Positions 1 through 58,470 of a DNA stretch of 64,000 nt are shown piece after piece (position 1 is the stretch's first letter; every line of letters begins with the position of its first letter). The position numbers and the translations under genes were made by a program. Source of the stretch: Eledone cirrhosa (taxonomy: Eukaryota); NCBI GenBank assembly GCA_964016885.1, contig OZ024743.1, positions 301,072,001-301,136,000 on the forward strand, read 5' to 3'. The notes below the pieces were generated by a model. The model saw nothing but the letters and a program-made list of their open reading frames with translations. It did not search any database and was not told the origin of the DNA.

Positions 1-115
1 ACCATAAATAGCATCACATCTTAAATAGATCAACGGTCAAATTGTCCTACTCCACTACCAAAAATGTACAGCAAAATATAAGTGCCTACTATGCATATAA
101 AAGTTTTAAAAAAAC

Positions 116-682
116 ATGAATATACCACCAACACATCAAACTAACCATAATACTAAAATTAACCGCAACAAACCACCATCTGCTTCACATATAACAAGAC
201 GAATAAATTCCACACCAAATTTGACTAACTCCCCTGATATAATATTCACGAATAGTTGTAACTGTAGAAAGAAACCAAATTGCCCATTAAAAGGAAATTG
301 TCTTATTAATAACATATTATATAAATGTAAACATAGCACTAAGGACTCAACTTATTCATATATAGGAGCTACTTCTAACCAATTTAAAGTAAGATTTAAT
401 ACCCACAAACATAGTTTTAAAAATGCCGCATTAGCTAATACAACATCCTTGGCTGAAATAATTAATAATTATAGAAAAAAGAATATCGATTATAACCTGA
501 CCTGCAGTGTGCTCAAAAGGGCCACCCCTTATCAAAATAAGAGATATGAGTGTAGATTATATTCCCAGGAACTTTTTGAAATAATGAAATCTAAGGATAT
601 CCTATTAAATAAGCCACAAGAATTAATTATATCGTGCAGTCATAGAATTAGAAGAACTTTCAAATATTATAAACCTAATTAA
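116..682 (+). pseudogene. PLE Cys-linker plus GIY-YIG endonuclease fragment
   Basis: Motifs CxC-CPL-C, YxC, YIGxT, R-H typical of PLE endonucleases. Confidence 0.8.
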
Positions 683-8941: not shown

Positions 8942-8961
8942 TTTTGCACTATATATATATA

Positions 8962-11900
8962 TAGTAATAATAATAAATTTGAAGACTAAAATCCAAAGAG
9001 GGGTGATAAGGATAAATATATATCGAATATATATGAACCGTAGATCAAATATTTATTAAAATAACAGATTCGTCTTCCATTCTTCCTCCGGTTGCAACGT
9101 TTTTTGAAATATTCACGTTTGCGTTCACATATTGACTTTGTTAGTTTCAGAAGATCCCGTTAAGGGTGAAAGCAGCGACTCTTTGCTTAAACTTTAATCT
9201 ATTATTTTAAGAAATATTTGCTCTACGGTTCTTATATATTCGATATATATTTATCCTTATCAGCCCTCTTTGGATTTTAGTCTTTAAATTTATTATTATT
9301 ACTATTTGGCTCCCTCGGTTGAGCACTCTATTGACTTATATTCATCATGCAGAAACAACATCTGAATATTTCTAAAAAGAACATACCTGTACCAAGCAGG
9401 AAAACATACCTAAAACTCCTGTTACAGAAATCAAACGCGTTCATTAAAATGTTGCGTTGGCGTGCCTTTTATTTCGATAATCAGGGAGAAGCAGACAACA
9501 AACAGGATGAATTCGGATTTAAAACCTATAATAACCCTCCGAGTAACCCAGCTTTGCTACCCTTCGAAAATGATGTCTTGGAACTCATAGGAAGTATCAA
9601 ATTTCGGAATAGGACCAATTCCTTCTAGCTGGATCGGAAGAACAGAATTCGGTCTATTAAGGATTCTAATGCCGTGCACGTCCATTCCGACAAAACTGGC
9701 AATCTATATCAAGTGGAGCGCAGTACTTACCATCAACTACTACATGATGCTGTAACTAAGGATTACCGTAAAACTAATCGGAGCGTCATTAATGAAATCA
9801 ACCATGCTCGTTTTAAAATCACCTCTGATCTCAACATCCTGGACCGGACTGAACCTCTGGACCCCTTTTCTCCTTATATACCCTGAAGGATCACAAATCC
9901 AATTTTCCGAACAACTCTTCTATTCGGCTTATTAATTCTACGAAGTCCGAATTAGGTAGACTTACTAAAAGGATTCTTGTTAGAATTATACCTGAAATTA
10001 GAAGTTTGGCCCCTCTTGAACTGTGGAACAATTCTTTCGCGGTGATTGATTGGTTCAACGGCATATGCAACAAGGAACATTGCCGTTTTATGCAACAGTG
10101 GTTAAGGATTTCGAAGTTGATGTCATCCTCAATGCCCGTAAGTCGGTGATTAATTTCGACGACTCTATTTGGATTAAAAAATCCAATAGTACCCCATTGG
10201 ACGTGAGTATGGGCGCCAGAGATTCTGCGGAGGTTACTGATCTTATCAGCCTTTTCCTTCTTTTCTCTATCAAGGAAACAATCCCCAACGTGGGCGGTGG
10301 TTTGTATCGTGATGATGATCTTTTGACCATGACTATGTGCGGCCCACGTGCTTACGACAGGTTCAGAAAAGAACTCACAGCCTTCTTTAAATGCGTCAAT
10401 CTCTCCATACAGGTTGAGGCCAATCTCTCTGTCGTTAATTACCTCGACGTTACCCTCAATTTATCGAATGGCTTTTATTATCCGTATAGAAAGCCGAATG
10501 ATACGTTTAATTACATAAGTAAGTTTTCTAACCATCCTGCCAGCATAACCAAGAACCTGGTAAGAAATGTTTCTTTGAGGCTTTCCTGTCTATCTACTAA
10601 CGAGCATATTTTCAACGACCATCCCACATATTACACTGAAGCTCTTGCTCGGAGTGGATTTGTCGATAAGGTAGCATATACAGAGTACGAGAATAGACCT
10701 AGAAGAAATAGATCCCGACGCATTATATGGTATAACCCATCATATAATATGGCGGTGGCCACACCATTAGCTAAGATATTTTTCTCTCCCTTATTATGGT
10801 GCAGTTTCCTCCTACACATACATATAGTAAAATGTTTAATAGAAATACTATTAAAATGTCTTACTCTACGACTCCTAACCTTGCACATAACATCACAGCT
10901 TCAAATTTAGCTAAACTACTTAGCCGTAGGAACACGTGCAACCCTGTTGTTAGTACTAATTGTAATTGGGGGAATCGGGTTGACTGCCCCCTATCCGGGA
11001 AATACCTCTCTAGTAACATTGTTTACAAAACTAAGGTTGAAACACCCACGTCCCGTAGGGCCTACATAGGGTAAGCCGCCAATAGATTCAAGCCGCGTCT
11101 TTACATGCATACTCTCTAAGAAGGAATATGACGTCACTTTCAGCTTATATCTGGAGTCTAAAAGACAACCAAACCCAATATAAGTTACACTGGGAGATCC
11201 TTGCTAGGGCTAGATCGTATAACGGAAATAAAAGACCATGTGACCTCTACGCCGATGAGGCTCTGGAAATAGTCTACGCCAAAGACCACATCTTAAACAA
11301 AAAATCTGAGGCATTTCGGCTTGTAAACATTAATTGCACAGATCTTTCCTGTATTACAGCACCACTTTATACCCTAACGAATAGTACGAACTATACGCGG
11401 ATATTTTACGTCTTGATGTGGTAGCTAAGTATATGTTATGTTTATACCATTACTTATTAGGTATAGGTAAGTATTATTACCTGTATGTTTTATGCAGGTA
11501 CGTATACTTCCTCGTACGTATATTTGATTTTATGTGTTATGGCGTATATATTATATATTCTTGTACATATGTTTTGGTTATGTGCATACGTGAGTTTTGC
11601 GTCTGTGTGAATATGCGCGTTCGTACGTATGTAGGGTGTGTGTATATGTGTACTTCGTGTTTTGGTTAACGAAGTCTCCGAATATATGTGTATTTACATG
11701 TAGGTATGTGTGTGCGCTTGTTATATACGTATTTATTTATTTATATACATTTATTTAATTATATGTATACACGTACACACACACATATATATGTATTAAT
11801 ATATATATTTTTATATATGTTAATGTGTGTATTTGGTGTATACATTCGTATGCGTGCGGGTACAGGCGTTGAGTGGATTCTGTATGTGCGTGTCGGAGTA

Positions 11901-12470
11901 TTTTTTTTTTTTTTCGTGTACGTGCGTGTATTTGTACACCTATGGCGAATTTTTTCGCGTATGCTTGTGTATGTACGTATATGGATGCGTGTATGTATTT
12001 ATTTCAATTACGTCTGGATTTTATTTACTTTATTCTTAACTCTGAAGCCGAGAATCATTCGGTTTCCTAGTTTTAGTCTACGACTTCAGTTATACCATTT
12101 AGTGGTTTTGTCTTTGTGTGCAATTGTTCTCTCCGCTTCACATATGGCGTATTATCTTCGATTTTTCCGTTCATTGCCTGAGAACGACTCTATGAACCAC
12201 CTAATATAATATTTGTCTACGAATTCTTTTATACCATAAACGTGGTTTTGTCTTTGCGTGTATGAGGTGTTATATTCGTTTTTTCCCGTTCTTTGCCAGG
12301 GAACGTTTCCACGAACCAAAGTATCGTATTCCTGTCCTCCTCCGGTTGCAACGTTTTTTGAAATATTCACTTCTGCGTTCACAGATTGACTTTGTTAGTT
12401 TCAGAAGATCCCGTTAAGGGTGAAAACAGCGATTATTTGCTTAAACTTTAATCTGTTATTTTAATAAATA
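8962..12470 (+). mobile_element. Near full-length decayed Penelope-like element with inverted 5' segment and direct terminal repeats
   Basis: LRWRAFYF, DKTGNLY, MGARDSAE, GGLYRDD, VNYLDVTLNL, YRKPN, SNHP, IIWYNP, C-CPL, YIG motifs over frameshifted ORFs 9347-11424. 9083-9215 is repeated directly at 12338-12470. 8962-9070 is inverted to 9195-9305. (TA)n on both sides. Confidence 0.92.
9143..9193 (+). ncRNA. Hammerhead-like motif with CAGAAGA (U4A) core; also 12397-12447 and ~31050-31150
   Basis: AGTTT-CAGAAGA-TCCC gttaa GGGT-GAAAGCA...TGCTT-AAACT. Confidence 0.55.
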
Positions 12471-12593
12471 TATATATATATATTATTAGAAATGTTAGCT
12501 ATCGCCGTATTTTGTCTAAAGAAATTAAAGAAATTATTTAGCCTGATGGTGGGGTTAAGAACCCTCGGAGAAATGGAAAAAGATGAGTATTTA

Positions 12594-12662
12594 CGTACAT
12601 GGGAGTCGAACCCACATCTTTGGTTATCCGGACCACTGTGCTACCATTTACACCAACATATC
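12594..12662 (-). pseudogene. tRNA-like sequence (pseudo-tRNA or SINE head) inside a ~105-bp inverted repeat
   Basis: Minus strand TGGTGTAAATGGTAGCAC-A-GTGGTCCGGATAACCA-AAGAT-GTGGGTTCGACTCCCAT gives D arm, anticodon-like arm and T arm. Acceptor stem poor. Confidence 0.6.
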
Positions 12663-12828
12663 ACCCGTCAAACTCATATTTTTCCATTTCTGCGAGGGTT
12701 CTTAACCCCACTATCAGAGTAAATAATTTCTTTAATTTCTTTAGTCAAAATGCGGCGATAGCTAACATTTCTAAAAAATTCAAATCAACTCGCTATTTCG
12801 AAAATATTCTTACATATATATATATACG

Positions 12829-19311: not shown

Positions 19312-19687
19312 TATATACAAGTTGGTATAAATCCCTATATGAAAAATCAGGTGAACACAGTGCAGGATATGTTGGAAGAGAGCTTATTCAGTGTAAACAA
19401 AGTTTCATATGCGTATCATGTATGTGCTACCACTGGTAGCGGAGTCGAGTCATGGCCATCATTTTATAATGGAGGAGGCAATTTTAAACATGCTCTTCAT
19501 TAAAGCACGCTCGAACATTTATATGGAATATAAATCTTTATTATCAGCAGTGATATTTGGATTAGAGATATTATACAGTCGTGGCCATGACTTGATACCG
19601 AAACCATGGTAGCACATGCATGTTAAGTGTATATATATATTTCACCTTAGCGGATCCTCAGCTCGTAATATATATATATATATATTA

Positions 19688-19725
19688 CGAGCTGAGGATC
19701 CGCTAAGGTGAAACAATTGTTCTCG
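19688..19725 (+). ncRNA. Minimal type I hammerhead
   Basis: CGAG-CTGAGGA-TCC gctaa GGT-GAAAC AATT GTT-CTCG. Partial inverted copy at ~19641-19670. Confidence 0.7.
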
Positions 19726-27129: not shown

Positions 27130-29344
27130 ATAAACACATATATATATATAGTCTAACAAAGTTATTTCGCTGCACATCTGCAACATCATCAGTGGTACTA
27201 TTATGTTCCTCCTGTTATATTGTATGTCTACGCCATTTTTATTTTATCTGTTTATTTCTTTATTTATTTTTGTCTTCTTCTCTGCGCATGCGTTGTGTGT
27301 GTGTATTCGCGTTTGGGTGACTGTGTTATGGTTATTGTATTCTATATTAGTTTACTAGTGTGTGTTTATATGTGTGTGTTGTCATTGTGCTTGAGTATAT
27401 ATTTATTTATTTATTTATATTTCTCTTAAGTCAGTATTGTTTGTTTGGTTGTTATTCCATTCATTTTTGTCTGTTTAGCTTTGGCCTTCTAAGCTCTATT
27501 TCTCTTGCCTCTCTGATCTGCTGGGTCATTTCTATGTTTAGATATTATTTTAATTTCTATGTTGTCTATGTTACCGTCATGTTGTTGTCTGGCTTGTTCG
27601 TATATTACTGAACCGTTTTTTTTTTTGTCCTTTTAGTCCTAGTGTTGGTCTATCCTTTCTCATATGCTTCGAGCTGTCTCGCCAATGTATGTTGTTGTCA
27701 TGTTTCTGGAAGTACTCTCTGTACATGTTATGCTATAGACTACATTTCTAGTTTTATAGTTTATCTGGGGGGTTACTTTACATATAACACGTTTCCTATT
27801 AGTACGGTGGGTTTTCTTAAACGGGTATGTTTTGCTGATCAGGGATGTTATGGTAGTTCCTGGCTTTTCTACCACTTTAACCTTTAAGTGGGTCTTTCTC
27901 AGGGCCTTTCTTCACTGGTTAGCTAATATCCTCCAGGGTTAGCGTCCACGAACATGACACTCTGGTATCTCTGTTTGTCGTACCAAGAGGTGGCTTTCCC
28001 TATCTTATGTTTTGTCCTATCTAAGCATGATTTGCTCCTGTATAATGGGCAAATTCCTTTCATATCCAGTTCTATGAGGGTCTTATACTTCTCCGTGGCT
28101 CCTTTGTATACTCTGATTCTCTCTCTTCGCTTGTAGCCAGAGAACTGCAAGCGGTTAATGAAGTGTTGGATGTGTCTTTCCATTTCTGTTGGGTCGCACA
28201 TGCGGGACACGTTCCTTATCACTCGTACCAAGTCTGCTATCAGACTACGAAACTTAGTACTACTGGACATTGCTGAGTTTTTGAGTATCAGGTTTATGGA
28301 GGCCACGAGTTTAGCGTAGTGTGAGTGGAGAATTTGGGCCCTCTCGTCTATAGTGTTAATCCAGATTTCCGTTTCTAATAAAGGTAGTCTATTCTTAGGG
28401 TGTTTGTAAAGGTAGTCGATAGTTACAGTTATACTCTGGTATATGGAGTTAGCTATCTGTTGGATGCTTTCCATTGTGCTACATTCCAAATCATATTTGT
28501 TAGTATTCTCTTGAGGGTGTGTCCTTGTTACTATATTAATATCGTCTACGTAACGAGAGTACATGATGAGGTCTATGGAGCTCTCATCAAGGAGATATTT
28601 GTGTTTCCTTTCCCACCATACCATAACAAGATTGGCAACGTCAACAAAGATGTTGACGCCAATGGATGCTACTACATTTTGGGTGTAAATATTTTTCGTT
28701 GAATTTGAATATAAGGCCCTTTAGGGTAGTTTTAATACTAGTCCATATTGCATGCACGACAATTTTTCTTACCTGATCATTGTTTTGGGGGGTCCGTATG
28801 GCTTCGGTCCACCCAATCCACCTTCCCATGGGAGTCTTTTTTGCCATTGGGGTTATGGTGGGGGGGGGGGGGGGTCTACCTCTTATGGGTCTACTGGGGC
28901 AGAAACGGCTAAGGGCATGGCTGTCTAGGTACTCGGTGACATAGGTAAGTCTACGTAGGAGGCCCAGTTCATCTGTGTCGACGTCGCAGAACGCCACCCC
29001 ACTCTCATTGATCATCACACATTTTTCCAAAGCAAAATCAATGTAAATGGATGGGTACAGTGACACTACGTTCATACTGCCTATTATGCAGTAAGATAGG
29101 TTCTTGTTTTTGTTGCACTCATTGATTCTGCTGAGGAGGTCCACTGTCCTGTCACATACATCGGGGTACATCTTGATTATGGTGCGTATAACCATTGAGA
29201 GGAAGTAGGAGATCCTATAGTTGCTAGCGATATTGGCCCCGCATACAGGTCATGTTGGTGATCCTGTTGTCGGGTCGTCGATTGTCTTATGTTCTTTGCG
29301 GAGCCAATACAAGGGTGTCATGTCACTGTTAGACGCCTGGAAGT

Positions 29345-31904: not shown

Positions 31905-32197
31905 TATAAAGAAAAAGGGATGAAATCGAAAATGCAACTGAAGTCTTATTTTTTTTTTAAATATATATATTTATTTGGTTCCTTTACCGGTTTCGCAGTT
32001 CTTCTGCTTTTCAAAAGGTGAGTTGAGATGGAGGATCTGTGGTTTTTCTCTGAGAAAAACCACAGACCCTCCATCTCAACTCACCTTTTGAAAAGCAGAA
32101 GAACTGCGAAACCGGTAAAGCAACCAAATAAATATATATATTTTTAAAAAAAATAAGACTTCAGTTGCATTTTCGATTTCATCCCTTTTTCTTTATA
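31905..32197. repeat. ~146-bp-arm near-perfect palindrome carrying two U3-A8 hammerhead motifs (31981-32018 minus, 32084-32121 plus)
   Basis: Centre GGTTTTTCTC-T-GAGAAAAACC. Motif CCTT-TTGAAAA-GCAG aagaa CTGC-GAAAC CG GTA-AAGG. Confidence 0.85.
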
Positions 32198-33549: not shown

Positions 33550-36130
33550 ATTAGAGTTTTATAAGCCATTATGATTTATATTTTCAACAGGCTTGGTTGG
33601 TTACTGTTTTTTCCTGACCTTATGTGAGGCTTGGAATGTAGACAAAGCTTTATGGAGGCAGTTTGAGAATAATTCACTTTTTCTGTTAATTTAGTTTTCA
33701 TAATTATTAATTATCAATAGGGTCTCCATTGTACAAAGCGCGGAGTTACTTGATATACTTGAGTTGCGAAAAGCTCCACTATTACAAAGTTTCGTCCAAA
33801 AGATAGAGTATTTTAATTTTTTGTCTTTTAATGACCATATAAGCTGTGATAAAGACGTCGATGATTTCCTATTAGAATTCGAAAATGAGCATTTATGATT
33901 CGCAAATCTAGCCTTAAATATAGAAGAAGTCGATCCTATGTAGTTGTATGTGTTCTAATCAGTTTTTACGATGCATTTATACACCACATTACTGTCCAAA
34001 CAATTATTTTGCAGAGGGCAATCTGGTTTATTTCTACTATTACATTTTGATTTATTATTATTTATGATAACACTACTATTAAAATTATTATGCTGATTCT
34101 GCTTTAGAATTTTACTGTTTATTTTAGCAATGTTTTGGGCCATGTTTATAGTTGTAGATTAAGATAATATAATAGTGTGTCTATTAAAAATGGAATGGTA
34201 TTTATGTTGACTAGGGAAAGAGCTGTCCAAAGCTTTAAAGGATAAGTTTGCTATTGGTGTTCTTACTGTTACGGAAGGAGGGGGGGGGGGGTGTCAACCA
34301 TATAACTGATTTAGTTCTGGTTCTTTTCCTCGATTTGTTCACCGTATAGGTGTTTGAATTATAATTATTAGAATTTCGTTTATATATGCCGTTATTTTTA
34401 TCAGGATTAAGACTTGGATTATTATTATCTATATATTCTATATTATTCTCTTAACCTGCTCTTTTTATCGCTTCATTGTAGTATGCTGCATTATCATCAA
34501 ATACTACTTTATTGGCAGATATTCTATTAATGCGTTATTGCACACTATATGCAATTGCTTTTTTTTACAGAGTTAGGGTGATTGGAATAATAACTAACAT
34601 AATATAAGTTTTCATTGGGCTTATGAAAAGGGTAATAAAAGCCAGAGTTTAAGTTAAAAGTAACATCAAGGAAATTAACTATTTTTTTACCACTTTCTAC
34701 TTCTAACTTCAGGTCATACATTTTAAAGAATTCTATTATACTTTTCTTTACTCTCTTTAGTTCTATATTGTTGTGTTTGACCACCGTAAATAAAATGTCG
34801 TCCCTATATAAACCACCGGTAATCTCCGGCAGTTTTCTATTTATCATATTTAATATGAAAATCCCCAGAAGATCTGTGATTTGCGCTGAATCACATGCCC
34901 CCATAGTGATATCAAAGTTTCTATTACTATCAGAGCGGGTCCAATATTCGTTGTTGAAGTTAATAATAGTTCTTCTAGCTGTTAGTATGATATCAATTTC
35001 ATCCGTGGTTAGATCAGTATAATTATAAGCGTATGATAGTGCCTTATTTAGTAGGTTGGGCGTTATGGAAGAATAGTAGTTTGTTAAATCCATCTGGATG
35101 AATTTATGGTTTTTCTTATCATCTATATTCTTATACCATTCTATGACTTCGTTTGTATCTTTCCACAAGCTCAATTTAGATCTCAATTTAAGAGCAGGTA
35201 GAATTCTATCGATGATGTTTTTACTGATTACTCCAATATCCGATTTGGATGGAGCAATCAGTCTAATTGGTAGGTCTTCCTCGAAGTTTTTTTTTGTGAT
35301 CTTTGAAGTTAATCCGCGGCTGCCTAGGTATAAGTGGCTCAGTTCTTCCTTCTAATCCTATTTATATGCATCCTCATTAATTTCTGTAAGATCTTTAGCC
35401 GGGGCTTTTTTATGATTTTTCCTAAGTTCCTTTAAAATCAAGTTATTATATTCTTCTTTGTTTATCCCATATAAATTATTTGTTTTGTCCGATTTAACCA
35501 ATATTTTGTTAACTTATTTTTATTTCTGTGATTTTTTTCTTTTAGAGTTTAAAGGAATTGGTGACCTATGAAAGGGTTTTTCCTAATTTTAATTTGTTTA
35601 AGTATACCAAGCGTTCGGTTTCAAAATCCTCCAGAAGTTTGTTCTATGGAGGATTCTTTCTTGATTTAAATAAAGATTCGAAATGACTGCTGTTGGTTTT
35701 TCTTTCAGCATCTTTATTTTCGAAATGAAATGCTCGCCATCTCATTCTTCTTATAAAAGAGTTAGTTTGTTCGATAATTTTCCTCATGTATTCCTCATTT
35801 GAAGGTATTGGTATATCCTTGAGGGATGTCGGGAAGTTTAAGAAATCCATATTTATTGAATATGTAATCTATTGTATAGAAAAGCGCTCAACCAACTGGG
35901 AGCAATACATTTTAAAGAGATAAGCAAGATTCAATGAGTACATCAAAGAATGAGTTTTACAGTAGATTGAAAGCACTCTACAGTTAGATATTTTCAAGAG
36001 TTATTAATATTAAATTCAAATATTAATAAAATAGATGTTCTTGTGATCAATTAAATTGTATTATACATATTTCAGACATACTTGAATCAAGTTCAATAGT
36101 ACGTCCTCATCAGATGAAATGAAATGATAC
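33550..36130 (-). mobile_element. Decayed Neptune-like Penelope element
   Basis: SLKDIPIPS, RRMRWRAFHF, DITMGACDSAQ, GGLYRDD, VNFLDVTFNL, SNHP, KPDCPLQNNCL, YIGST. Degenerate hammerhead at ~36055-36120 upstream. Confidence 0.9.
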
Positions 36131-41870: not shown

Positions 41871-42332
41871 GTGTGTGTATATATGTGCATATGTGTATAT
41901 ATGTATATATATATATATGGTGGCTGCCAACTCGTTTTCGAGTACGACCACTACTTTATATCCATGTAGGAGAACCCCTACATATGCGCTGAACGAGTGT
42001 GGCTTTTTAGTCCATCCAGCGACTTGAAAACTTGGCTACAAACACTACACTTGTGACAATTATTGACACATAGTGGTGAGCCCATGGTACCATGTGACGA
42101 CAAGGGCAGAGAGATCTCCAGATATAAAGCAATGCCTGTGCCGTGAAGCTTTTATAGTGAGCAAAGGCACTGCACAAAGCCAGTCCCACTCTGTTAACCA
42201 TGAGGATATTTACCAAAAAGAAGAACAAGTCAACATCATTGGATACCATCGGGGTTGCAGGTGTTATATCAGAGTTTTCCTTCTCCTAGAATTCTGCCTT
42301 GACAAAGGCTAAGGGGTAATCTCTCCTGGTGA

Positions 42333-42422
42333 TTTTGGATGGCCATTGACTCCGAAGAGCTCCTTTGCCCTTTGACAGGTTTTGTCAAAGGGCAAAGGAG
42401 CTCCCAAGAGTCAATGGCCATC

Positions 42423-42427
<5 letters not shown>
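42333..42427. repeat. 95-bp near-perfect hairpin
   Basis: TTTTGGATGGCCATTGACTC...CTTTGACA ggttt TGTCAAAG...GAGTCAATGGCCATCCAAAA. Confidence 0.9.
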
Positions 42428-42491
<64 letters not shown>

Positions 42492-42606
42492 CATACATAT
42501 ATATACATTCACATACATACATATATATGTATACACACACATATATATACACATACATATATATACATATACATAGACACACACATACATATATATATAT
42601 TTATAA

Positions 42607-42657
<51 letters not shown>

Positions 42658-42674
42658 TATATATATATATATAT

Positions 42675-45600
42675 ACAATTAAGTTAAAAATGTACATCCA
42701 CATATGTATACTGAAATACTAGTATGCATATGAATACACACACGTGTACATATGTAGATGTACCGAGTTTTTCACTGGACACTTTACTGTGAGTGTCCAG
42801 CTATTCTGTATGTAAACACACAGACAAACCGGTTTTTAGAGTCATACTGGTTTTCGAGGAAACACCTTTCCTCTATTCTCCAGAAAGCCAGACAAGGAAT
42901 ATTGGACTAGTTTCGATGTTGTTACATCTCATCAGCAACATTTACCTATCTTCCGGCCTTTCTAGAGAATCGTAAAAGCACATATCGTTATATGCTTTTT
43001 CTATGAAAATTAGTAGTGGGCAGACTAATTTGCATAGAGCGTGAGTACATACCGGTTCGGCGGAGACGATAAAAACAAATAACGAAACGAAATTAAATTT
43101 CGTTTCGTTTGTAACTCACTTTTGTATGACTGACGCTTAAACAATTAAGTTAAAAATGTACATCCACATATGTATACTGAAATACTAGTATGCATATGAA
43201 TACACACACGTGTACATATGTAGATGTACCGAGTTTTTCACTGGACACTTTACTGTGAGTGTCCAGCTATTCTGTATGTAAACACACAGACAAACCGGTT
43301 TTTAGAGTCATACTGGTTTTCGAGGAAACACCTTTCCTCTATTCTCCAGAAAGCCAGACAAGGAATATTGGACTAGTTTCGATGTTGTTACATCTCATCA
43401 GCAACATTTACCTATCTTCCGGCCTTTCTAGAGAATCGTAAAAGCACATATCGTTATATGCTTTTTCTATGAAAATTAGTAGTGGGCAGACTAATTTGCA
43501 TAGAGCGTGAGTACATACCGGTTCAGCGGAGACGATAAAAACAAATAACGAAACGAAATTAAATTTCGTTTCGTTTGTAACTCACTTTTGTATGACTGAC
43601 GCTTAAACAATTAAGTTAAAAATGTACATCCACATATGTATACTGAAATACTAGTATGCATATGAATACACACACGTGTACATATGTAGATGTACCGAGT
43701 TTTTCACTGGACACTTTACTGTGAGTGTCCAGCTATTCTGTATGTAAACACACAGACAAACCGGTTTTTAGAGTCATACTGGTTTTCGAGGAAACACCTT
43801 TCCTCTATTCTCCAGAAAGCCAGACAAGGAATATTGGACTAGTTTCGATGTTGTTACATCTCATCAGCAACATTTACCTATCTTCCGGCCTTTCTAGAGA
43901 ATCGTAAAAGCACATATCGTTATATGCTTTTTCTATGAAAATTAGTAGTGGGCAGACTAATTTGCATAGAGCGTGAGTACATACCGGTTCAGCGGAGACG
44001 ATAAAAACAAATAACGAAACGAAATTAAATTTCGTTTCGTTTGTAACTCACTTTTGTATGACTGACGCTTAAACAATTAAGTTAAAAATGTACATCCACA
44101 TATGTATACTGAAATACTAGTATGCATATGAATACACACACGTGTACATATGTAGATGTACCGAGTTTTTCACTGGACACTTTACTGTGAGTGTCCAGCT
44201 ATTCTGTATGTAAACACACAGACAAACCGGTTTTTAGAGTCATACTGGTTTTCGAGGAAACACCTTTCCTCTATTCTCCAGAAAGCCAGACAAGGAATAT
44301 TGGACTAGTTTCGATGTTGTTACATCTCATCAGCAACATTTACCTATCTTCCGGCCTTTCTAGAGAATCGTAAAAGCACATATCGTTATATGCTTTTTCT
44401 ATGAAAATTAGTAGTGGGCAGACTAATTTGCATAGAGCGTGAGTACATACCGGTTCAGCGGAGACGATAAAAACAAATAACGAAACGAAATTAAATTTCG
44501 TTTCGTTTGTAACTCACTTTTGTATGACTGACGCTTAAACAATTAAGTTAAAAATGTACATCCACATTTCTGGAGAATAGAGGAAAGGTGTTTCCTCGAA
44601 AACCAGTATGACTCTAAAAACCGGTTTGTCTGTGTGTTTACATACAGAATAGCTGGACACTCACAGTAAAGTGTCCAGTGAAAAACTCGGTACATCTACA
44701 TATGTACACGTGTGTGTATTCATATGCATACTAGTATTTCAGTATACATATGTGGATGTACATTTTTAACTTAATTGTTTAAGCGTCAGTCATACAAAAG
44801 TGAGTTACAAACGAAACGAAATTTAATTTCGTTTCGTTATTTGTTTTTATCGTCTCCGCTGAACCGGTATGTACTCACGCTCTATGCAAATTAGTCTGCC
44901 CACTACTAATTTTCATAGAAAAAGCATATAACGATATGTGCTTTTACGATTCTCTAGAAAGGCCGGAAGATAGGTAAATGTTGCTGATGAGATGTAACAA
45001 CATCGAAACTAGTCCAATATTCCTTGTCTGGCTTTCTGGAGAATAGAGGAAAGGTGTTTCCTCGAAAACCAGTATGACTCTAAAAACCGGTTTGTCTGTG
45101 TGTTTACATACAGAATAGCTGGACACTCACAGTAAAGTGTCCAGTGAAAAACTCGGTACATCTACATATGTACACGTGTGTGTATTCATATGCATACTAG
45201 TATTTCAGTATACATATGTGGATGTACATTTTTAACTTAATTGTTTAAGCGTCAGTCATACAAAAGTGAGTTACAAACGAAACGAAATTTAATTTCGTTT
45301 CGTTATTTGTTTTTATCGTCTCCGCTGAACCGGTATGTACTCACGCTCTATGCAAATTAGTCTGCCCACTACTAATTTTCATAGAAAAAGCATATAACGA
45401 TATGTGCTTTTACGATTCTCTAGAAAGGCCGGAAGATAGGTAAATGTTGCTGATGAGATGTAACAACATCGAAACTAGTCCAATATTCCTTGTCTGGCTT
45501 TCTGGAGAATAGAGGAAAGGTGTTTCCTCGAAAACCAGTATGACTCTAAAAACCGGTTTGTCTGTGTGTTTACATACAGAATAGCTGGACACTCACAGTA

Positions 45601-48600
45601 AAGTGTCCAGTGAAAAACTCGGTACATCTACATATGTACACGTGTGTGTATTCATATGCATACTAGTATTTCAGTATACATATGTGGATGTACATTTTTA
45701 ACTTAATTGTTTAAGCGTCAGTCATACAAAAGTGAGTTACAAACGAAACGAAATTTAATTTCGTTTCGTTATTTGTTTTTATCGTCTCCGCTGAACCGGT
45801 ATGTACTCACGCTCTATGCAAATTAGTCTGCCCACTACTAATTTTCATAGAAAAAGCATATAACGATATGTGCTTTTACGATTCTCTAGAAAGGCCGGAA
45901 GATAGGTAAATGTTGCTGATGAGATGTAACAACATCGAAACTAGTCCAATATTCCTTGTCTGGCTTTCTGGAGAATAGAGGAAAGGTGTTTCCTCGAAAA
46001 CCAGTATGACTCTAAAAACCGGTTTGTCTGTGTGTTTACATACAGAATAGCTGGACACTCACAGTAAAGTGTCCAGTGAAAAACTCGGTACATCTACATA
46101 TGTACACGTGTGTGTATTCATATGCATACTAGTATTTCAGTATACATATGTGGATGTACATTTTTAACTTAATTGTTTAAGCGTCAGTCATACAAAAGTG
46201 AGTTACAAACGAAACGAAATTTAATTTCGTTTCGTTATTTGTTTTTATCGTCTCCGCTGAACCGGTATGTACTCACGCTCTATGCAAATTAGTCTGCCCA
46301 CTACTAATTTTCATAGAAAAAGCATATAACGATATGTGCTTTTACGATTCTCTAGAAAGGCCGGAAGATAGGTAAATGTTGCTGATGAGATGTAACAACA
46401 TCGAAACTAGTCCAATATTCCTTGTCTGGCTTTCTGGAGAATAGAGGAAAGGTGTTTCCTCGAAAACCAGTATGACTCTAAAAACCGGTTTGTCTGTGTG
46501 TTTACATACAGAATAGCTGGACACTCACAGTAAAGTGTCCAGTGAAAAACTCGGTACATCTACATATGTACACGTGTGTGTATTCATATGCATACTAGTA
46601 TTTCAGTATACATATGTGGATGTACATTTTTAACTTAATTGTTTAAGCGTCAGTCATACAAAAGTGAGTTACAAACGAAACGAAATTTAATTTCGTTTCG
46701 TTATTTGTTTTTATCGTCTCCGCTGAACCGGTATGTACTCACGCTCTATGCAAATTAGTCTGCCCACTACTAATTTTCATAGAAAAAGCATATAACGATA
46801 TGTGCTTTTACGATTCTCTAGAAAGGCCGGAAGATAGGTAAATGTTGCTGATGAGATGTAACAACATCGAAACTAGTCCAATATTCCTTGTCTGGCTTTC
46901 TGGAGAATAGAGGAAAGGTGTTTCCTCGAAAACCAGTATGACTCTAAAAACCGGTTTGTCTGTGTGTTTACATACAGAATAGCTGGACACTCACAGTAAA
47001 GTGTCCAGTGAAAAACTCGGTACATCTACATATGTACACGTGTGTGTATTCATATGCATACTAGTATTTCAGTATACATATGTGGATGTACATTTTTAAC
47101 TTAATTGTTTAAGCGTCAGTCATACAAAAGTGAGTTACAAACGAAACGAAATTTAATTTCGTTTCGTTATTTGTTTTTATCGTCTCCGCTGAACCGGTAT
47201 GTACTCACGCTCTATGCAAATTAGTCTGCCCACTACTAATTTTCATAGAAAAAGCATATAACGATATGTGCTTTTACGATTCTCTAGAAAGGCCGGAAGA
47301 TAGGTAAATGTTGCTGATGAGATGTAACAACATCGAAACTAGTCCAATATTCCTTGTCTGGCTTTCTGGAGAATAGAGGAAAGGTGTTTCCTCGAAAACC
47401 AGTATGACTCTAAAAACCGGTTTGTCTGTGTGTTTACATACAGAATAGCTGGACACTCACAGTAAAGTGTCCAGTGAAAAACTCGGTACATCTACATATG
47501 TACACGTGTGTGTATTCATATGCATACTAGTATTTCAGTATACATATGTGGATGTACATTTTTAACTTAATTGTTTAAGCGTCAGTCATACAAAAGTGAG
47601 TTACAAACGAAACGAAATTTAATTTCGTTTCGTTATTTGTTTTTATCGTCTCCGCCGAACCGGTATGTACTCACGCTCTATGCAAATTAGTCTGCCCACT
47701 ACTAATTTTCATAGAAAAAGCATATAACGATATGTGCTTTTACGATTCTCTAGAAAGGCCGGAAGATAGGTAAATGTTGCTGATGAGATGTAACAACATC
47801 GAAACTAGTCCAATATTCCTTGTCTGGCTTTCTGGAGAATAGAGGAAAGGTGTTTCCTCGAAAACCAGTATGACTCTAAAAACCGGTTTGTCTGTGTGTT
47901 TACATACAGAATAGCTGGACACTCACAGTAAAGTGTCCAGTGAAAAACTCGGTACATCTACATATGTACACGTGTGTGTATTCATATGCATACTAGTATT
48001 TCAGTATACATATGTGGATGTACATTTTTAACTTAATTGTTTAAGCGTCAGTCATACAAAAGTGAGTTACAAACGAAACGGAATTTAATTTCGTTTCGTT
48101 ATTTGTTTTTATCGTCTCCGCTGAACCGGTATGTACTCACGCTCTATGCAAATTAGTCTGCCCACTACTAATTTTCATAGAAAAAGCATATAACGATATG
48201 TGCTTTTACGATTCTCTAGAAAGGCCGGAAGATAGGTAAATGTTGCTGATGAGATGTAACAACATCGAAACTAGTCCAATATTCCTTGTCTGGCTTTCTG
48301 GAGAATAGAGGAAAGGTGTTTCCTCGAAAACCAGTATGACTCTAAAAACCGGTTTGTCTGTGTGTTTACATACAGAATAGCTGGACACTCACAGTAAAGT
48401 GTCCAGTGAAAAACTCGGTACATCTACATATGTACACGTGTGTGTATTCATATGCATACTAGTATTTCAGTATACATATGTGGATGTACATTTTTAACTT
48501 AATTGTTTAAGCGTCAGTCATACAAAAGTGAGTTACAAACGAAACGAAATTTAATTTCGTTTCGTTATTTGTTTTTATCGTCTCCGCTGAACCGGTATGT

Positions 48601-50908
48601 ACTCACGCTCTATGCAAATTAGTCTGCCCACTACTAATTTTCATAGAAAAAGCATATAACGATATGTGCTTTTACGATTCTCTAGAAAGGCCGGAAGATA
48701 GGTAAATGTTGCTGATGAGATGTAACAACATCGAAACTAGTCCAATATTCCTTGTCTGGCCTTCTGGAGAATAGAGGAAAGGTGTTTCCTCGAAAACCAG
48801 TATGACTCTAAAAACCGGTTTGTCTGTGTGTTTACATACAGAATAGCTGGACACTCACAGTAAAGTGTCCAGTGAAAAACTCGGTACATCTACATATGTA
48901 CACGTGTGTGTATTCATATGCATACTAGTATTTCAGTATACATATGTGGATGTACATTTTTAACTTAATTGTTTAAGCGTCAGTCATACAAAAGTGAGTT
49001 ACAAACGAAACGAAATTTAATTTCGTTTCGTTATTTGTTTTTATCGTCTCCGCCGAACCGGTATGTACTCACGCTCTATGCAAATTAGTCTGCCCACTAC
49101 TAATTTTCATAGAAAAAGCATATAACGATATGTGCTTTTACGATTCTCTAGAAAGGCCGGAAGATAGGTAAATGTTGCTGATGAGATGTAACAACATCGA
49201 AACTAGTCCAATATTCCTTGTCTGGCTTTCTGGAGAATAGAGGAAAGGTGTTTCCTCGAAAACCAGTATGACTCTAAAAACCGGTTTGTCTGTGTGTTTA
49301 TATACAGAATAGCTGGACACTCACAGTAAAGTGTCCAGTGAAAAACTCGGTACATCTACATATGTACACGTGTGTGTATTCATATGCATACTAGTATTTC
49401 AGTATACATATGTGGATGTACATTTTTAACTTAATTGTTTAAGCGTCAGTCATACAAAAGTGAGTTACAAACGAAACGGAATTTAATTTCGTTTCGTTAT
49501 TTGTTTTTATCGTCTCCGCTGAACCGGTATGTACTCACGCTCTATGCAAATTAGTCTGCCCACTACTAATTTTCATAGAAAAAGCATATAACGATATGTG
49601 CTTTTACGATTCTCTAGAAAGGCCGGAAGATAGGTAAATGTTGCTGATGAGATGTAACAACATCGAAACTAGTCCAATATTCCTTGTCTGGCTTTCTGGA
49701 GAATAGAGGAAAGGTGTTTCCTCGAAAACCAGTATGACTCTAAAAACCGGTTTGTCTGTGTGTTTACATACAGAATAGCTGGACACTCACAGTAAAGTGT
49801 CCAGTGAAAAACTCGGTACATCTACATATGTACACGTGTGTGTATTCATATGCATACTAGTATTTCAGTATACATATGTGGATGTACATTTTTAACTTAA
49901 TTGTTTAAGCGTCAGTCATACAAAAGTGAGTTACAAACGAAACGAAATTTAATTTCGTTTCGTTATTTGTTTTTATCGTCTCCGCCGAACCGGTATGTAC
50001 TCACGCTCTATGCAAATTAGTCTGCCCACTACTAATTTTCATAGAAAAAGCATATAACGATATGTGCTTTTACGATTCTCTAGAAAGGCCGGAAGATAGG
50101 TAAATGTTGCTGATGAGATGTAACAACATCGAAACTAGTCCAATATTCCTTGTCTGGCTTTCTGGAGAATAGAGGAAAGGTGTTTCCTCGAAAACCAGTA
50201 TGACTCTAAAAACCGGTTTGTCTGTGTGTTTACATACAGAATAGCTGGACACTCACAGTAAAGTGTCCAGTGAAAAACTCGGTACATCTACATATGTACA
50301 CGTGTGTGTATTCATATGCATACTAGTATTTCAGTATACATATGTGGATGTACATTTTTAACTTAATTGTTTAAGCGTCAGTCATACAAAAGTGAGTTAC
50401 AAACGAAACGGAATTTAATTTCGTTTCGTTATTTGTTTTTATCGTCTCCGCTGAACCGGTATGTACTCACGCTCTATGCAAATTAGTCTGCCCACTACTA
50501 ATTTTCATAGAAAAAGCATATAACGATATGTGCTTTTACGATTCTCTAGAAAGGCCGGAAGATAGGTAAATGTTGCTGATGAGATGTAACAACATCGAAA
50601 CTAGTCCAATATTCCTTGTCTGGCTTTCTGGAGAATAGAGGAAAGGTGTTTCCTCGAAAACCAGTATGACTCTAAAAACCGGTTTGTCTGTGTGTTTACA
50701 TACAGAATAGCTGGACACTCACAGTAAAGTGTCCAGTGAAAAACTCGGTACATCTACATATGTACACGTGTGTGTATTCATATGCATACTAGTATTTCAG
50801 TATACATATGTGGATGTACATTTTTAACTTAATTGTTTAAGCGTCAGTCATACAAAAGTGAGTTACAAACGAAACGAAATTTAATTTCGTTTCGTTATTT
50901 GTTTTTAT
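42675..50908. repeat. 466-bp tandem array carrying one hammerhead ribozyme per unit (putative non-LTR retrozyme); left arm ~4.06 units, right arm ~13.6 units in opposite orientation
   Basis: Units start ACAATTAAG at 42675, 43141, 43607, 44073 and 44539 (period 466). Orientation flips at ~44567 and the array runs to 50908. ORF track repeats every 466 nt (4 on +, 13 on -). Both ends abut (TA)n. Confidence 0.97.
44954..45039 (+). ncRNA. Type I hammerhead ribozyme (first of 13 + strand copies at 466-nt spacing; 4 more on - strand in the left arm)
   Basis: AATGTTG-CTGATGA(44984-90)-GATGT aaca ACATC-GAAAC-TA-GTC-CAATATT: canonical core, 5-bp stem II, palindromic ACTAGT stem III, stem I extended by CTAGAAAGGCCGGA/TCTGGCTTTCTGG. 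Predicted cleavage after C45014. Confidence 0.93.
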
Positions 50909-50930
50909 ATATATATATATATATATATAT

Positions 50931-52373
<1,443 letters not shown>

Positions 52374-53053
52374 TGTGTGCATGTGTGTGTGTGTGTGAAT
52401 GTCTGTTGACACATGGAATATAGCTTAAGAGAAATATGACAATAATGATATGAAAGGCGCCCAATATTTTGAACTGGTTTATAGAATTCTCGTGGCCTTT
52501 GTCACTCTAAGTAGTGCTTTAAATATTAGATCTTAAAGAATTTCCCTTTTCTTTAAATCCATCAATCATGACAGACCCCCCAACCATCTTATAGACACCT
52601 GAAATATAGTCATTTAGCTTAAGAGAAACTTAAAAATAAGGAGTGGCACCTCATTCTGAAAATGTTTATAGAGTTCTTTCCGCCTTTGTCACTCTAAATA
52701 TAAATTATAGCCTTAAAGAATTAGCTTTTAATGAATTCCCTTTTCTTTCAACGAATGACCTCCACCCATCCCACTCGCCACCCTCTCCTACCACCTAAAA
52801 AGATATAAAAACCACAACATATATTTTTGGAAAGCCAGATTCTTGCTGATTTCTAAAGAATGAAACAGTTCCAGTCCTGTAGAATATCATCTATATTAAA
52901 ACATATATATATATATATATATGCAAAAGTTTTATTTAAAATTGTTGGGTCACAACGAGTAAATATTTTATAACTGATATAAAAGCACTCAACAGTTTCT
53001 GGAGTAGGTTTACGATATTAAATAAATGGAAACTATATTTATAAAACCATATT

Positions 53054-53119
53054 TATTTCGTTATATATATTTCTGGGATATCATATTAAAAATATGGTAT
53101 GCCTTCCTCAGACAAAATA
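53054..53119 (-). ncRNA. Type I hammerhead in PLE 3' terminal repeat
   Basis: Minus strand TATTTTGT-CTGAGGA-AGGCATACCATATT...AATATGATATCCCA-GAAAT ATAT ATA-ACGAAATA. Confidence 0.72.
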
Positions 53120-55014
53120 CAATACATAAGCTGTTTTATAAATAATTTTGTCATACCTTATAATAATGCAACTTCCATTTAAATAGTTGATTTGGTAGTG
53201 AAATTGTTATGACAGTTATATAGAAAGAAAAACGAAGATGAAAAGAAGAAGATGAAGAGATGTATGTAAATAAAAAAAGAAGAAGATGAAGAGATGTATG
53301 TAAAGAAAAACAACAGAGCGAGATAGAGAGAGAAGGAGATATGGGAGAGAGAAATACATTGAGGAAGTGAAAAAATATAGTAGGCAGCTTTTGGACAGAT
53401 GATCATCGTATATGTGAGAGGTTAAGGAGGGAAGGGATACAGTTAAACTAGCCGACACATAAATCACGTCGAGTGTAGAGGAGAAAAAGAAAGAAAGATG
53501 ATATATTTAAAATATATTAAAAATATATTATGTCTCATCCATTTGAATTATCAATTTTTATGAATTAGGTATTATAATGTAAATATCAGTATTCATGAAT
53601 GAGACACATATCCATAATGTGTGAAAAAATGACCCCATGCTTAGTTTAAAAATTCTTAGGTCTATAAGCAAAATCTGAGATAAAACTTCAAACATAAGTA
53701 TATATGCATTCTCATGAAAAAAGAAAAAAGAGAAAAGAGAAGGTTATCTCAAATTCAAGTTGATAAATATAGACACACATGTGAACCTACGTGATATGCT
53801 CCAAAGATTCTTATATTTCATGAAAATCTTCATTGCGTTACAAAAGATTCCACCCTACATATATTTACATACATATATACATATATATAGACATAACATA
53901 TATAAGATATACATTAACATTTAAAGTAACATTCCTGCCTCAATTGCATGATTATCGATCAAGCATAGAATAGACAACAGATATCAATATTAAAAATTAA
54001 AAACGCCAAGAATATCTTCGTCACTCCACAGAGTATCTAGGGACGCAAGAGAACATAGTATGCCACGCATATCAGTCACATAAAATCAGAATCAAAAGCA
54101 AACAAAACCAAAATTGTTCACCAAGCCTTATTTAGCAGAAATCATTCAAAACTTATTCTACAAATGCTCTTATATTTATTATAGAAGTTTATCCAGCTTA
54201 AAAATTTATTCAAAAGATTGGGAACATCGCCAATTTTAGGGTAGTTTATTTAATCTCATTAATTATATATTCATGCAGAAAGGTTTTAAAAAAAATTGAA
54301 GGAATCGAAATATTTATCGCCAAGTTTCATAAATAGTTAAATATCTTAAGTAAATATACTACATTTTATACTACATTTTAAATTTATATTTATATTTAAA
54401 AGTTGAGTTCAATCTATGTCTGCAGCAGCTGAATAAATTGGTTCGTAAATTAAGGGAATTTTTAGATTTTAGTATAAAGAATAGCTCCTCCGCGCAGAGG
54501 TCACATGTCTCAGAAGAGGAATTAAAAGGAATCCCTTTTGAGACTATATTCCAAACCATCGAATATCCAACTTTATCATGTTTAAGTTGCCAGAGTAAGC
54601 CTGACAGCGATGTTGAAGATTTTTTATTTGGATCCGTGAAAGAATTTTTGTGATTATTATAGCGAAGTTTAAATTCTGTCGAGGTGGAACCAACATAATT
54701 AAAAGAATTTAAATCAGTTTTAACATTACAGTTGTATATTATATTTTTAACTAAGCAATTGTTATTTAGCGGACATTTAGATCTATCTCTACAGTTACAG
54801 TTTTTTACTTGAATATTGTTTAGGCTATTTTCGGTATTTTGGCTAGGTTTTAGATTCCTATTATTTATTCTATTAATATTTTGTGCTAAATTTTTTGTGG
54901 ACGAGTACGTTAATTTTATAGTATGTCTATTGAAAATTGAGTGATACTTATGTGTTCTAGGGAAGCGTTTGTCAAGAGCATTAAAAAATAGTTTAGCGAT
55001 GTGGGTTTTAATGT

Positions 55015-56073
55015 TTAGTGAGAAGGGGGGGGGGGGGCAAACCATATTATATTTCTAGTTCTATTTCTTTTCTGGTTTTTGGAATTATTGTAGTGCTTTC
55101 TATTATAGTTGTTAAAGTTGTTACTGTAATTAAAATTGTTGTTATTTTGGTTAGTTTGTCTATTATCGATGTACATAATGTTATCACTATATCCTGCTCT
55201 AGCTAACGCTTCATTATAATACTGGGCTTTTTCGTCAAAAATATTTTTATTGGAAGAGATTCTAGAGATACGTTTTTGAACAGAGTTCACTATAGTATTT
55301 TTGACAAATCTGGGGTGATTGGAGCTAAAATTGACATAATTCAAGTTTTCATTTAACTTGTGAAATGGATAGTGAAGACATGTGTTGAGATTTAATGTTA
55401 CGTCTAGGAAATTGACTATTCTATGGTTATTCTCAATTTCTATTTTTAGATTAAAGTAATTAAAAAATTGTATAATTTGTTTTCTTTTCTTATTTAGTTC
55501 AGAGTTATTATTTTCAATAAGTAAAAGCATGTCATCTCTATATAAACCTCCGGTAACACCGGGTATTTTCCTATGCAGCGAATTAATTATAAATAGGCCC
55601 ACAAGGTCCGTTACCTGAGCTGAGTCTGATGATCCCATAGTAATGTCGAAATTATTATCTCTATCTGCCCTAGTCCATAGTTGGTTATTAAATTCTATCA
55701 AAGTTTTCCTTGCCGATAATATAATGTGCATTTCATTGCTAGTTAGGTCTGTATGCTTGAATGCGTAATTTAGTGCCTTATTTAGTAGATTAGGGGTAAT
55801 GGATGAATAGTAGTTAGCAATATCTAGTTGAATAAATTTATTATTATTGTTATATTTAATTTCATTAAACCACTCAATGACCTCCCCAGTTCCCTTCCAC
55901 AAGGTCAAGCCAGGTAAACAATTCAAGTCCTTAATTTGCTGTATCACTCTGTCTAGAATGTTCTTGCTAAGTTTACCAAGGTCAGATTTTGATGGTGCAA
56001 TCAACCTGACTGGCAAGTCATTTTCAAAATTTCTCTTGTGATCTTTCATATTGATCTTGGGTTTCCTGGGCAC
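55015..56073 (-). pseudogene. PLE reverse transcriptase domain
   Basis: LDIANYYSSI, ITMGSSDS and YRDD catalytic motifs. Frameshift at a poly-G run near 55025. Confidence 0.88.
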
Positions 56074-56673
56074 GAAAGGTTATGTTTTGTTCTCAATTTC
56101 CAACTCATGCATTATACGTTCAGCCTTATCTGCTACCTTGTACTTTTTCCTTAGTTCTTTCAGTATGAGGCCATTATACATGTCTTTATCCACTCCATAG
56201 AGGTTGTCGGTTTTGTCCGATTTCACCAAGATCTTCTCTGTTCTCTCTCAGCTCGCAATGTTATCCTTAATGCTTTTCAGATATTCCTGGCCATTGAAGT
56301 TTCTCTTAAATCTGACTCCTTGTATGATAGAAATTATATCGTTTTCAAAATCATTCAAAAGTTTGTTGGGGGGTGGATTTTTTTTAGATTTGAAGACTCT
56401 GTCTAGGTCTGAGACATTTTCATTTACATTAGATTTAGATTTATCAAAGTGGAATGCACGCCACCTGATTCTCCTTATAAAGGAGTCTGATTTATCTATT
56501 AGTTGTTTAATAAAGTCCTTGTTTCTAGGTAGAGGTATGTCTTTTAGAGAAGAAGAGATCTTAAAGAATTCCATTTTTTCAGTTATAATATAAAGCACTC
56601 AACGGTATCCCAGAAATATATATAACGAAATAAATATGGTTTTATAAATATAGTTTCCATTTGTTTAATATCG

Positions 56674-56704
<31 letters not shown>

Positions 56705-57274: not shown

Positions 57275-58470
57275 AATATATATACACATATATGTGTACA
57301 TAGACACATACATACACATCAATATTCACTCGTACAAAAATATACATACTTGCAAAGAGAAAAGCGTGCTAATTGTAGTTATGGCAAAAAGAAGGTAAAG
57401 TAACATTGTAGTAGTGAAATGAGAGAAACTAGGATCTAGGATCAAATGATTGCAGCAGCTGAGAAGGAGTAAGATTGTTGGTAGATGAGGTATTTACAGA
57501 CAATTGTGTGGTATAGACTTGTGAAGGAAATAGTATACTTAATGAATATATTTCTGTGGGTAGTAGGTATCCTAATTTAAAGCTATGTTATGTTGGTTCG
57601 ATTCACGGAGGTTTGAATCTTATGAATTTAGTGGCTATTCTATGTCTGCAGAAGATAGATCTTTCTAACTTATTATTAAGTAGCCTTTTAACATTTCTAA
57701 GGATATACAATAGCTCAAGATCACACAGCCCGCAATAGGACATACCTGTACTATAGGTTTTAGCAGCCGACATCTTCGACCAGTTGATAGTGTAGCTAGC
57801 GTTGCTGTCCTTCAATTCCCATATTTTTCTGGCGAGAGTGGTGGAACCCAAAATTGCTCGATTTTTCATTGAGTGCCTGTGCACATACCATCTTTTCTTA
57901 AAAGAACCCGCGGTGGATCCTATGTAATTCCAGGTGGAGTTACCCGAGATGACAGTGCACATGTACACCAGGCTCGAATCGAGACATCTATTCGCCAATG
58001 GGCACCTATCTGGGAGGTGACAGTTGCAGTTTGAGGCGCTATTTTGTGCAGCTTTTACATTCCTATTTAGTACCCTGTTATAAGTGGGTTGTGATATATG
58101 CCCATGGGGTTTTGCTGCTGCGCGTTTGTATGCGCTTGTGGTTGTGATGTTGTGATGAGTTTGTGCTTATGTATAGGTGCAATTGATTTACTTGAGATAT
58201 TTCTGTGGTTGATCTTACGTATGTGTGATTCTATGTTAGCTGCTGTTGAGAAAGAGAGTTTAATAGTAGATCTATTGAGTATTTTGTGATATATATGCGA
58301 GATAGGGAAGTGTTTATCTATTAGTTTAAAGAATGTAGAGGGCAGTCTAGTTTTTATAGAGGAGTTGAATATTGGGTTGAACCATAGGTATTTTCTTTGT
58401 CTGTTTCTTCTATTATTTCTAGGGTTTACGTTATTAGTGTTTTGGCCGTTTACTCTAGGTGTTACAGCAT
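56705..58470 (-). mobile_element. 5'-truncated PLE (endonuclease plus 3' UTR)
   Basis: WFNP motif near 58380, CHLPDRCPLANRCL, VYMC, NYIGSTAGSFKKRW, CGLC. Degenerate long-stem-II hammerhead at ~56755-56865. Confidence 0.82.

Follow-up and report, generated by a model that had tools for sequence, protein, structure and literature searches.

A tandem array of 466-bp units that reverses orientation at position 44567 of a 64,000-nucleotide stretch of Eledone cirrhosa DNA (the window) is probably the product of one insertion event in which a Penelope-like reverse transcriptase (RT)/GIY-YIG protein, probably of the TA-targeting Hydra type, acted in trans on a non-autonomous hammerhead retrozyme. The two outer 3′ ends of the array lie at two unit-internal sites, A and B, which also bound insertions elsewhere in the genome. 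Out of 24 two-arm insertions, 23 had one end at site A and the other at site B, and none had A+A or B+B (p = 2.4e-7). Coordinates are listed in Table 1.

Table 1. Array, target tracts, and Penelope-like elements (PLEs) in the window
Feature	Position	Strand	Basis or detail
PLE-A, degenerate Penelope-like element	8961..12471	+	Self-comparison
Left target tract, imperfect (TA)n	42427..42674	.	TRF (period 2) and sequence
Short arm, 4.06 retrozyme units	42675..44567	-	Inner end 202, outer 3′ end 230 (site A)
Head-to-head junction	44567..44567	.	1-nt overlap (T at 44567)
Long arm, 13.61 units	44567..50908	+	Inner end 19, outer 3′ end 302 (site B)
Minimal type I hammerhead, predicted cut after 45014	44977..45021	+	Rfam, motif, and pairing from sequence
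Reference 466-bp unit	45015..45480	+	36.5% GC, no stop-free stretch above 60 aa
72-nt tail between sites A and B (unit 231-302), with long hairpin	50837..50908	+	
Right target tract, (TA)n	50909..50930	.	TRF
Fold-back insertion of a PLE-B-related pLTR, one arm tailed and one untailed	50931..52237	.	Sequence comparison
PLE-B, Hydra-like Penelope element, this copy frameshifted	52925..56675	-	Motifs, ORF comparison

Array, unit, and ribozyme

TRF resolved two 466-bp arrays, each with 99% matches, of 4.1 copies (short arm) and 13.6 copies (long arm). Unit position 1 is the first base past the predicted GUC cleavage (window 45015). An earlier note on this DNA had about 4 units meeting about 13.6 opposite units near 44567 with a 1-nt overlap, and the TRF arrays and unit numbering agree with it; the long arm does begin, as it also said, 18 nt past the predicted cleavage position. 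The tail is present at the end of the long arm only. The orientation switch is confirmed as real by the assembly and by its agreement with the one-end-each rule.

The unit is non-coding and has no LTR-type structure, and the array ends are unit-internal sites on (TA)n; by the sequence criteria set out in PMC7229834 and preprint 10.64898/2026.07.22.740005, it is a non-LTR retrozyme. Hammerhead motifs recurred 17 times at 466-bp spacing (13 on the plus strand, 4 on the minus strand), all matched by Rfam RF02275 (36.9 to 37.3 bits, E ~1e-5), scores that do not reach its gathering score of 52. With pairing taken from the sequence, the predicted ribozyme has a 7-bp stem I, a CUGAUGA core, a 5-bp stem II, GAAAC-UA-GUC, and a palindromic minimal stem III. 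Monomer RNA was predicted to be strongly self-paired (−161.6 kcal/mol; z = −10.5). Allele 432G was carried by all 17 units in the window versus 0 of 205 units elsewhere; it was not found in four sequencing runs (raw X22 reads, 0/235 and 0/85 at two equivalent places), which hints that the window insertion is polymorphic, although contigs cannot prove its absence.

Small palindromic elements were also seen in the window at 12483-12777, 31905-32197, 19630-19722, and 42332-42428, one of them with a tRNA-like center (Rfam RF00005 at 12591-12660, 31.8 bits). Some of these may be inverted insertions of stump size.

Insertions elsewhere in the genome

A genome search with the unit returned 366 candidates, of which 40 were scored, and 150 of 277 rows were listed. 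All 38 other places in the listed rows, a second insertion in locus L063, and the window made up a sample of 40 insertions, each selected for at least one full unit at ~99% identity and hence biased to young arrays. Listed copies were 99 to 100% identical and lay on many contigs, with ~1.1 singleton changes per kb among the sampled copies.

Every one of the 24 two-arm insertions was head-to-head. The other 16 were single-armed, 4 of them with a 9- to 13-nt inverted site-A stub; among the matches listed, eight further arrays had minus-then-plus rows in six. Of the 67 arm 3′ ends, 63 fell at site A (positions 227 to 233, n = 32) or at site B (296 to 303, n = 31), ~72 nt apart in the unit; the remaining 4 were one end at a locus edge (resolved to 233), one internal break, and two exceptions (L055 and L056), L055 being the sole two-arm insertion with an off-site end. 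The exceptions were a retrozyme arm running from 232 to 124 between TA tracts (L056:4614-5438) and an arm ending at 108 (L055:4705-5300).

Because the outer ends fall at two recurring sites, they are fixed, not permuted. The earlier note was right that the outer ends in the window differ in unit position and both run into (TA)n, and the inverted arms and (TA)n flanks that it proposed to look for in other arrays do recur; permuted ends were found neither in the window nor elsewhere, and the random RT start points that it had implied are replaced by fixed ones at sites A and B. It had also treated the inversion as a secondary, 5′-inverted arm, a view contradicted by the site-B arm being the longer in only 13 of 22 insertions; either class can be longer.

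TA-rich DNA adjoined 62 of 67 arm ends, versus 458 of 2,925 background flank 20-mers (16%). At L066, in non-TA DNA, an 11- to 13-bp target-site duplication surrounded the whole two-armed insert; the duplication was clear there but not resolvable at the window locus. At L034 (5880-6332), an older copy, the long arm was 89% identical to the young unit and the other arm, essentially the tail (229-302), was 98.6% identical, so the tail may be the conserved part.

Junctions between arms

Inner ends were scattered in a manner compatible with a uniform distribution (Rayleigh p ~0.6; KS p = 0.26; n = 46). A post hoc excess at positions 1 to 50 (10/46; p = 0.02) was not seen again in 15 listed contig joints (4/30 versus 3.2 expected). 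Only 6 of 46 inner ends lay within 25 nt of the cut, versus 5.0 expected, and none lay at it, so that the 18-nt distance in the window looks like chance; the suggested link between junction and ribozyme cut was therefore dropped, ruled out by the uniform inner ends and the non-repeating excess. Also rejected was L1-style twin priming on non-overlapping RNA segments, with offsets scattered over ~±220 nt; the arms of L069, which end in one and the same marked unit without being nested, likewise speak against L1-style twin priming on a single RNA.

Of the 24 junctions, 14 had overlaps of 1 to 5 nt, 3 were blunt, and 7 carried inserts of 2 to 27 nt, several of which were copied from the unit. Overlaps of at least 3 nt occurred in 8 of the 17 insert-free junctions, versus 6.3% by chance. 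Among the matches listed in four sequencing runs, there was no record of an empty (TA)n allele of the window insertion.

Evidence for a single event, and the template

The two arms belonged to the same haplotype class at 23 of 23 loci (shuffled mean, 8.3; maximum, 17), and a rare variant was common to both arms at 9 of 23 (shuffled mean, 0.04). Shared class, the recurring two-arm layout, and TA-rich ends uphold the earlier reading that the array, its inverted arm included, entered (TA)n in one PLE-type insertion.

That note had left the template as circular or multimeric, and the variants speak in part for each. A private substitution was fixed in every unit in the window and at L042, L044, L047, L054, L062, L063b, and L069, which fits an origin in a single monomer, such as a circle would provide. 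Recurrent variants confined to some units were found in 11 of the 22 arms of at least 4 units and were common to both arms at six loci (L060, L069, L052, L057, L061, and the window); at L060 and L069, the same marked unit ends both arms (24A+50A at L069, whose arms are not nested either way). Such sharing needs a heterogeneous multimeric template, or later conversion. Multimeric templates are evident at several loci, and repeated copying of one monomeric circle is insufficient there.

Variants stayed linked across the ribozyme cut (312C-271G, three times in the window), in agreement with PMC11167929, where RNA left unprocessed was the chief substrate in vitro. Template switching at site B, suggested by the same linkage in the window, was rejected as a general rule, as L060, L052, and L049 keep variants linked across site B. 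The site-A arm maps inside the site-B arm in the window and at L052, an arrangement that fold-back would permit as well. A four-unit periodicity of variants at L049 and L050 may reflect later duplication.

Penelope-like elements as comparators

The earlier note gave PLEs at 8962-12470 and 52925-56675 the same layout as the array, and both do show it. Within PLE-A, 9196-9305 recurs inverted at 8961-9070, and the stretch 9070-9217 is found again at 12324-12471; the inverted arm stops at the counterpart of 9305 and the body at that of 9217, 88 nt apart. PLE-A loci elsewhere had flanks too short for testing the one-end-each rule. Its pLTR (9104-9180 and 12358-12435) has a hammerhead-like motif with an altered core (CAGAAGA versus CUGANGA).

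The window copy of PLE-B has its tailed 3′ end at ~52925 and a 70-nt inverted arm (56606-56675, the inverse of 53011-53080) that ends ~86 nt short of the tailed end, with a minimal hammerhead-like motif near 53050-53120, in the pLTR. The family is very abundant (67,902 first-look candidates), and a natural 749-aa open reading frame (ORF) occurs in L117 and L087. A motif scan gave RWR for RWK, DKT, a CxCx5C linker, plus a GIY-YIG-like domain at the C terminus, and Atlas matches of 0.96 to 0.98 were to HTH_animal, GIY-YIG, and RVT_1 clusters; the PLE ORFs had no significant Pfam family. From 30 returned PLE-B loci, 19 were sampled, mostly picked for a visible inverted piece. Three were unresolvable, and 15 of the other 16 ended once at each of two sites lying ~88 nt from each other (p = 5e-4), one of them through a short stub; the exception, L118, had both ends tailed. 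The rule also held for the two window copies and for small additional inserts in L109 and L115. The fold-back insertion in the TA tract at the right end of the array (1.24 kb, 98% perfect) obeyed the one-tail rule.

The unit had no similarity to PLE loci L070 to L118 and L120 to L133 at E<1e-3, and its comparison with the rest of the window, including PLE-A, PLE-B, and the other window PLEs, gave only weak TA/CA-rich matches. No autonomous PLE similar to the unit being found in these two families and the window, PLE-B ranks as a comparator, not a proven partner, and we infer the mobilizer of the retrozyme from its footprints.

Further PLE-like and other sequences were noted in passing. Four hammerhead-like motifs at 36113 (-), 36816 (+), 38244 (-), and 41609 (+), none resembling the retrozyme hammerhead, are probably pLTRs of other PLE families. 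An RT-like ORF at 34545-35351 had 66% DNA identity to PLE-B, and two more GIY-YIG-like C-terminal PLE fragments with the CxCx5C linker lay at 110-682 (+) and 57603-58166 (-). Broken RT-like ORFs of another PLE-like type, with a YVDD motif, were seen at 27923-29249 (-), with no Pfam match for the tested part, and a LINE-type RT (PF00078; E = 3e-21) was found in a GC-rich island at 16885-18024 (-). Beside the PLE-B copy in L117, a short-period tandem repeat (L117:1379-3709), probably a minisatellite, has a 777-codon open frame of Cys/Tyr-rich repeats.

Mechanism and alternatives

Under the preferred reading, the endonuclease would nick both strands of (TA)n, and, with uncleaved multimeric (or circular) RNA as template, one 3′-OH would prime RT at site A and the other at site B, so that a single RNP, perhaps a protein dimer, would use each site once. 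Each RT would pass through several units and stop at random; the two cDNAs would overlap in the template and be end-joined, with repair filling in, and unequal exchange afterwards may have added units. Overlap in the template is plausible because PLE RTs are not known to have RNase H. Two-strand priming would yield head-to-head arms without the antisense self-priming of PMC3846280. In vitro, Poseidon PLE protein nicks and extends both target strands, and its RT starts at two internal sites bounding the genomic tail (PMC11167929); no strand difference in RT start site was seen there, which counts against the model, as do the exceptions L118, L055, and L056 and the 16 single-armed insertions. 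Hydra families insert in (TA)n, as described in PMC8557442.

We consider it unlikely that the same PLE machinery worked by a cDNA that snaps back (or an antisense template that self-primes) and is then copied, endonuclease cuts setting both ends. Fold-back has been proposed for Penelope head-to-head palindromes (PMC3846280), and the tail has been ascribed to endonuclease-mediated resolution of an intermediate (PMC8557442), which could also yield one tailed and one untailed end; the junction microhomology fits snap-back, and in the window, L052, and L060, the shorter arm corresponds to part of the longer. Against it, however, stand the arms of L069, a single locus, neither contained in the other unless converted later, the fact that either arm class can be the longer, and junctions that are not palindromic mirror points. 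An RT circling one monomeric circRNA many times from random start points seems slightly less likely again. Circular templates have been proposed (PMC7229834), and both the window allele 432G and the seven further loci with a private substitution in all units are consistent with a single monomer, but the start points are fixed, variants confined to some units recur between arms at six loci, and variants remain linked across the cut. New lineages may still be seeded by a circle, with entry at A and B.

That a short insertion grew by unequal exchange as a DNA-level satellite and was then inverted by recombination is very improbable. The periodicity at L049 and L050 suggests some later duplication, and local amplification is favored in preprint 10.64898/2026.07.22.740005; later inversion nonetheless cannot yield A+B outer ends in 23 of 24 insertions, always head-to-head, and leaves a duplication flanking the whole insert unexplained. 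We give still less credence to an assembly artifact from fold-back chimeric long reads. No record bridging 44567 was found among the matches listed in four runs, but the junction positions (202 versus 19) are not mirrored, the two flanks are different, and the arms differ in variant order; moreover, contigs assembled from three other runs contain 15 listed head-to-head joints, with 5 more outside the listing, and ends joined to TA at 228, 233, and 302, with one joint identical, letter for letter, to the L049 junction.

Twin priming at sites A and B remains our preferred reading of the window array, and whether it extends to all PLE inversions is, in our judgment, evenly balanced. Autonomous and retrozyme inversions alike would then be symmetric twin target-primed RT by one RNP using two mutually exclusive tail-bounding sites; every inverted insertion would have exactly one tailed end, and retrozyme "satellites" would be born as multi-kilobase arrays in a single step. 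If true, the ~75- to 90-nt tail module would become a candidate for the cis signal behind two-strand insertion.

PLEs have been called a "strong candidate" as retrozyme mobilizer (PMC7229834), and the preprint 10.64898/2026.07.22.740005 describes the mobilization mechanism as still to be elucidated, leaning on local amplification; how PLE head-to-head inversions and tails form is named in PMC8557442 as a next task for in vitro work. The family reported here offers direct genomic footprints on what mobilizes animal non-LTR retrozymes and on whether arrays are born whole, and the one-end-each rule is sharp, countable evidence on PLE inversion and tail formation. The retrozyme is also a compact RNA whose two mapped start sites can each be mutated alone in the in vitro assay already established. 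The element class and general architecture are known; the value of the window array lies in mechanistic evidence with a directly testable rule.

Comparison with known systems

L1 twin priming likewise primes cDNA from the two target strands and leaves an inversion whose join shows microhomology, but there the second primer anneals wherever the first cDNA has stopped, a site that varies. In the array, both sites are fixed, and the position of one arm's inner end does not follow that of the other arm's outer end.

Retrozymes, their proposed PLE origin, and PLE inversions, tails, and (TA)n targeting are already published. Among mostly open-access main texts, a literature search found no paper on inverted or two-ended retrozyme insertions or on a strict one-end-each rule. 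The array shares with the animal non-LTR retrozymes of PMC7229834 and preprint 10.64898/2026.07.22.740005 a non-coding unit, repeated in tandem and low in GC, that carries one type I hammerhead, as well as dispersed arrays, and PLEs as proposed mobilizers; inverted arms or fixed ends are not described in the main texts of either. Its hammerhead is of the minimal PLE type, whereas those of PMC7229834 are canonical, and 466 bp is slightly above their 150 to 450 bp. No parental pLTR of the unit came to light among the PLEs compared.

Chlamys elements such as MRC1, non-autonomous PLE dependants covered in PMC8557442, likewise form multicopy head-to-tail insertions; unlike the retrozyme, they are described there as lacking canonical hammerheads, with a 3′ end that resembles the parent and algal hosts. 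The Hydra clade, in the account of PMC8557442, shares (TA)n targeting with the array, and PLE-B, likened to Hydra by motifs, carries motifs of the clade; the retrozyme, in contrast, encodes nothing and is not alignable to PLE-B.

EN+ PLEs, as described in PMC3846280 and PMC8557442, have an inverted 5′ copy and an optional 30- to 40-bp tail. Common to these and the array are head-to-head inversion, two alternative 3′ ends, an AT-rich target, and truncated inner ends. The tail is longer in the retrozyme (~72 nt) and in PLE-A and PLE-B (~88 nt), however, and both arms of the array are multimers of a non-coding unit. Whereas those papers describe the tail as optional or often at one end, it stood at exactly one end in all but one of the two-arm insertions sampled here.
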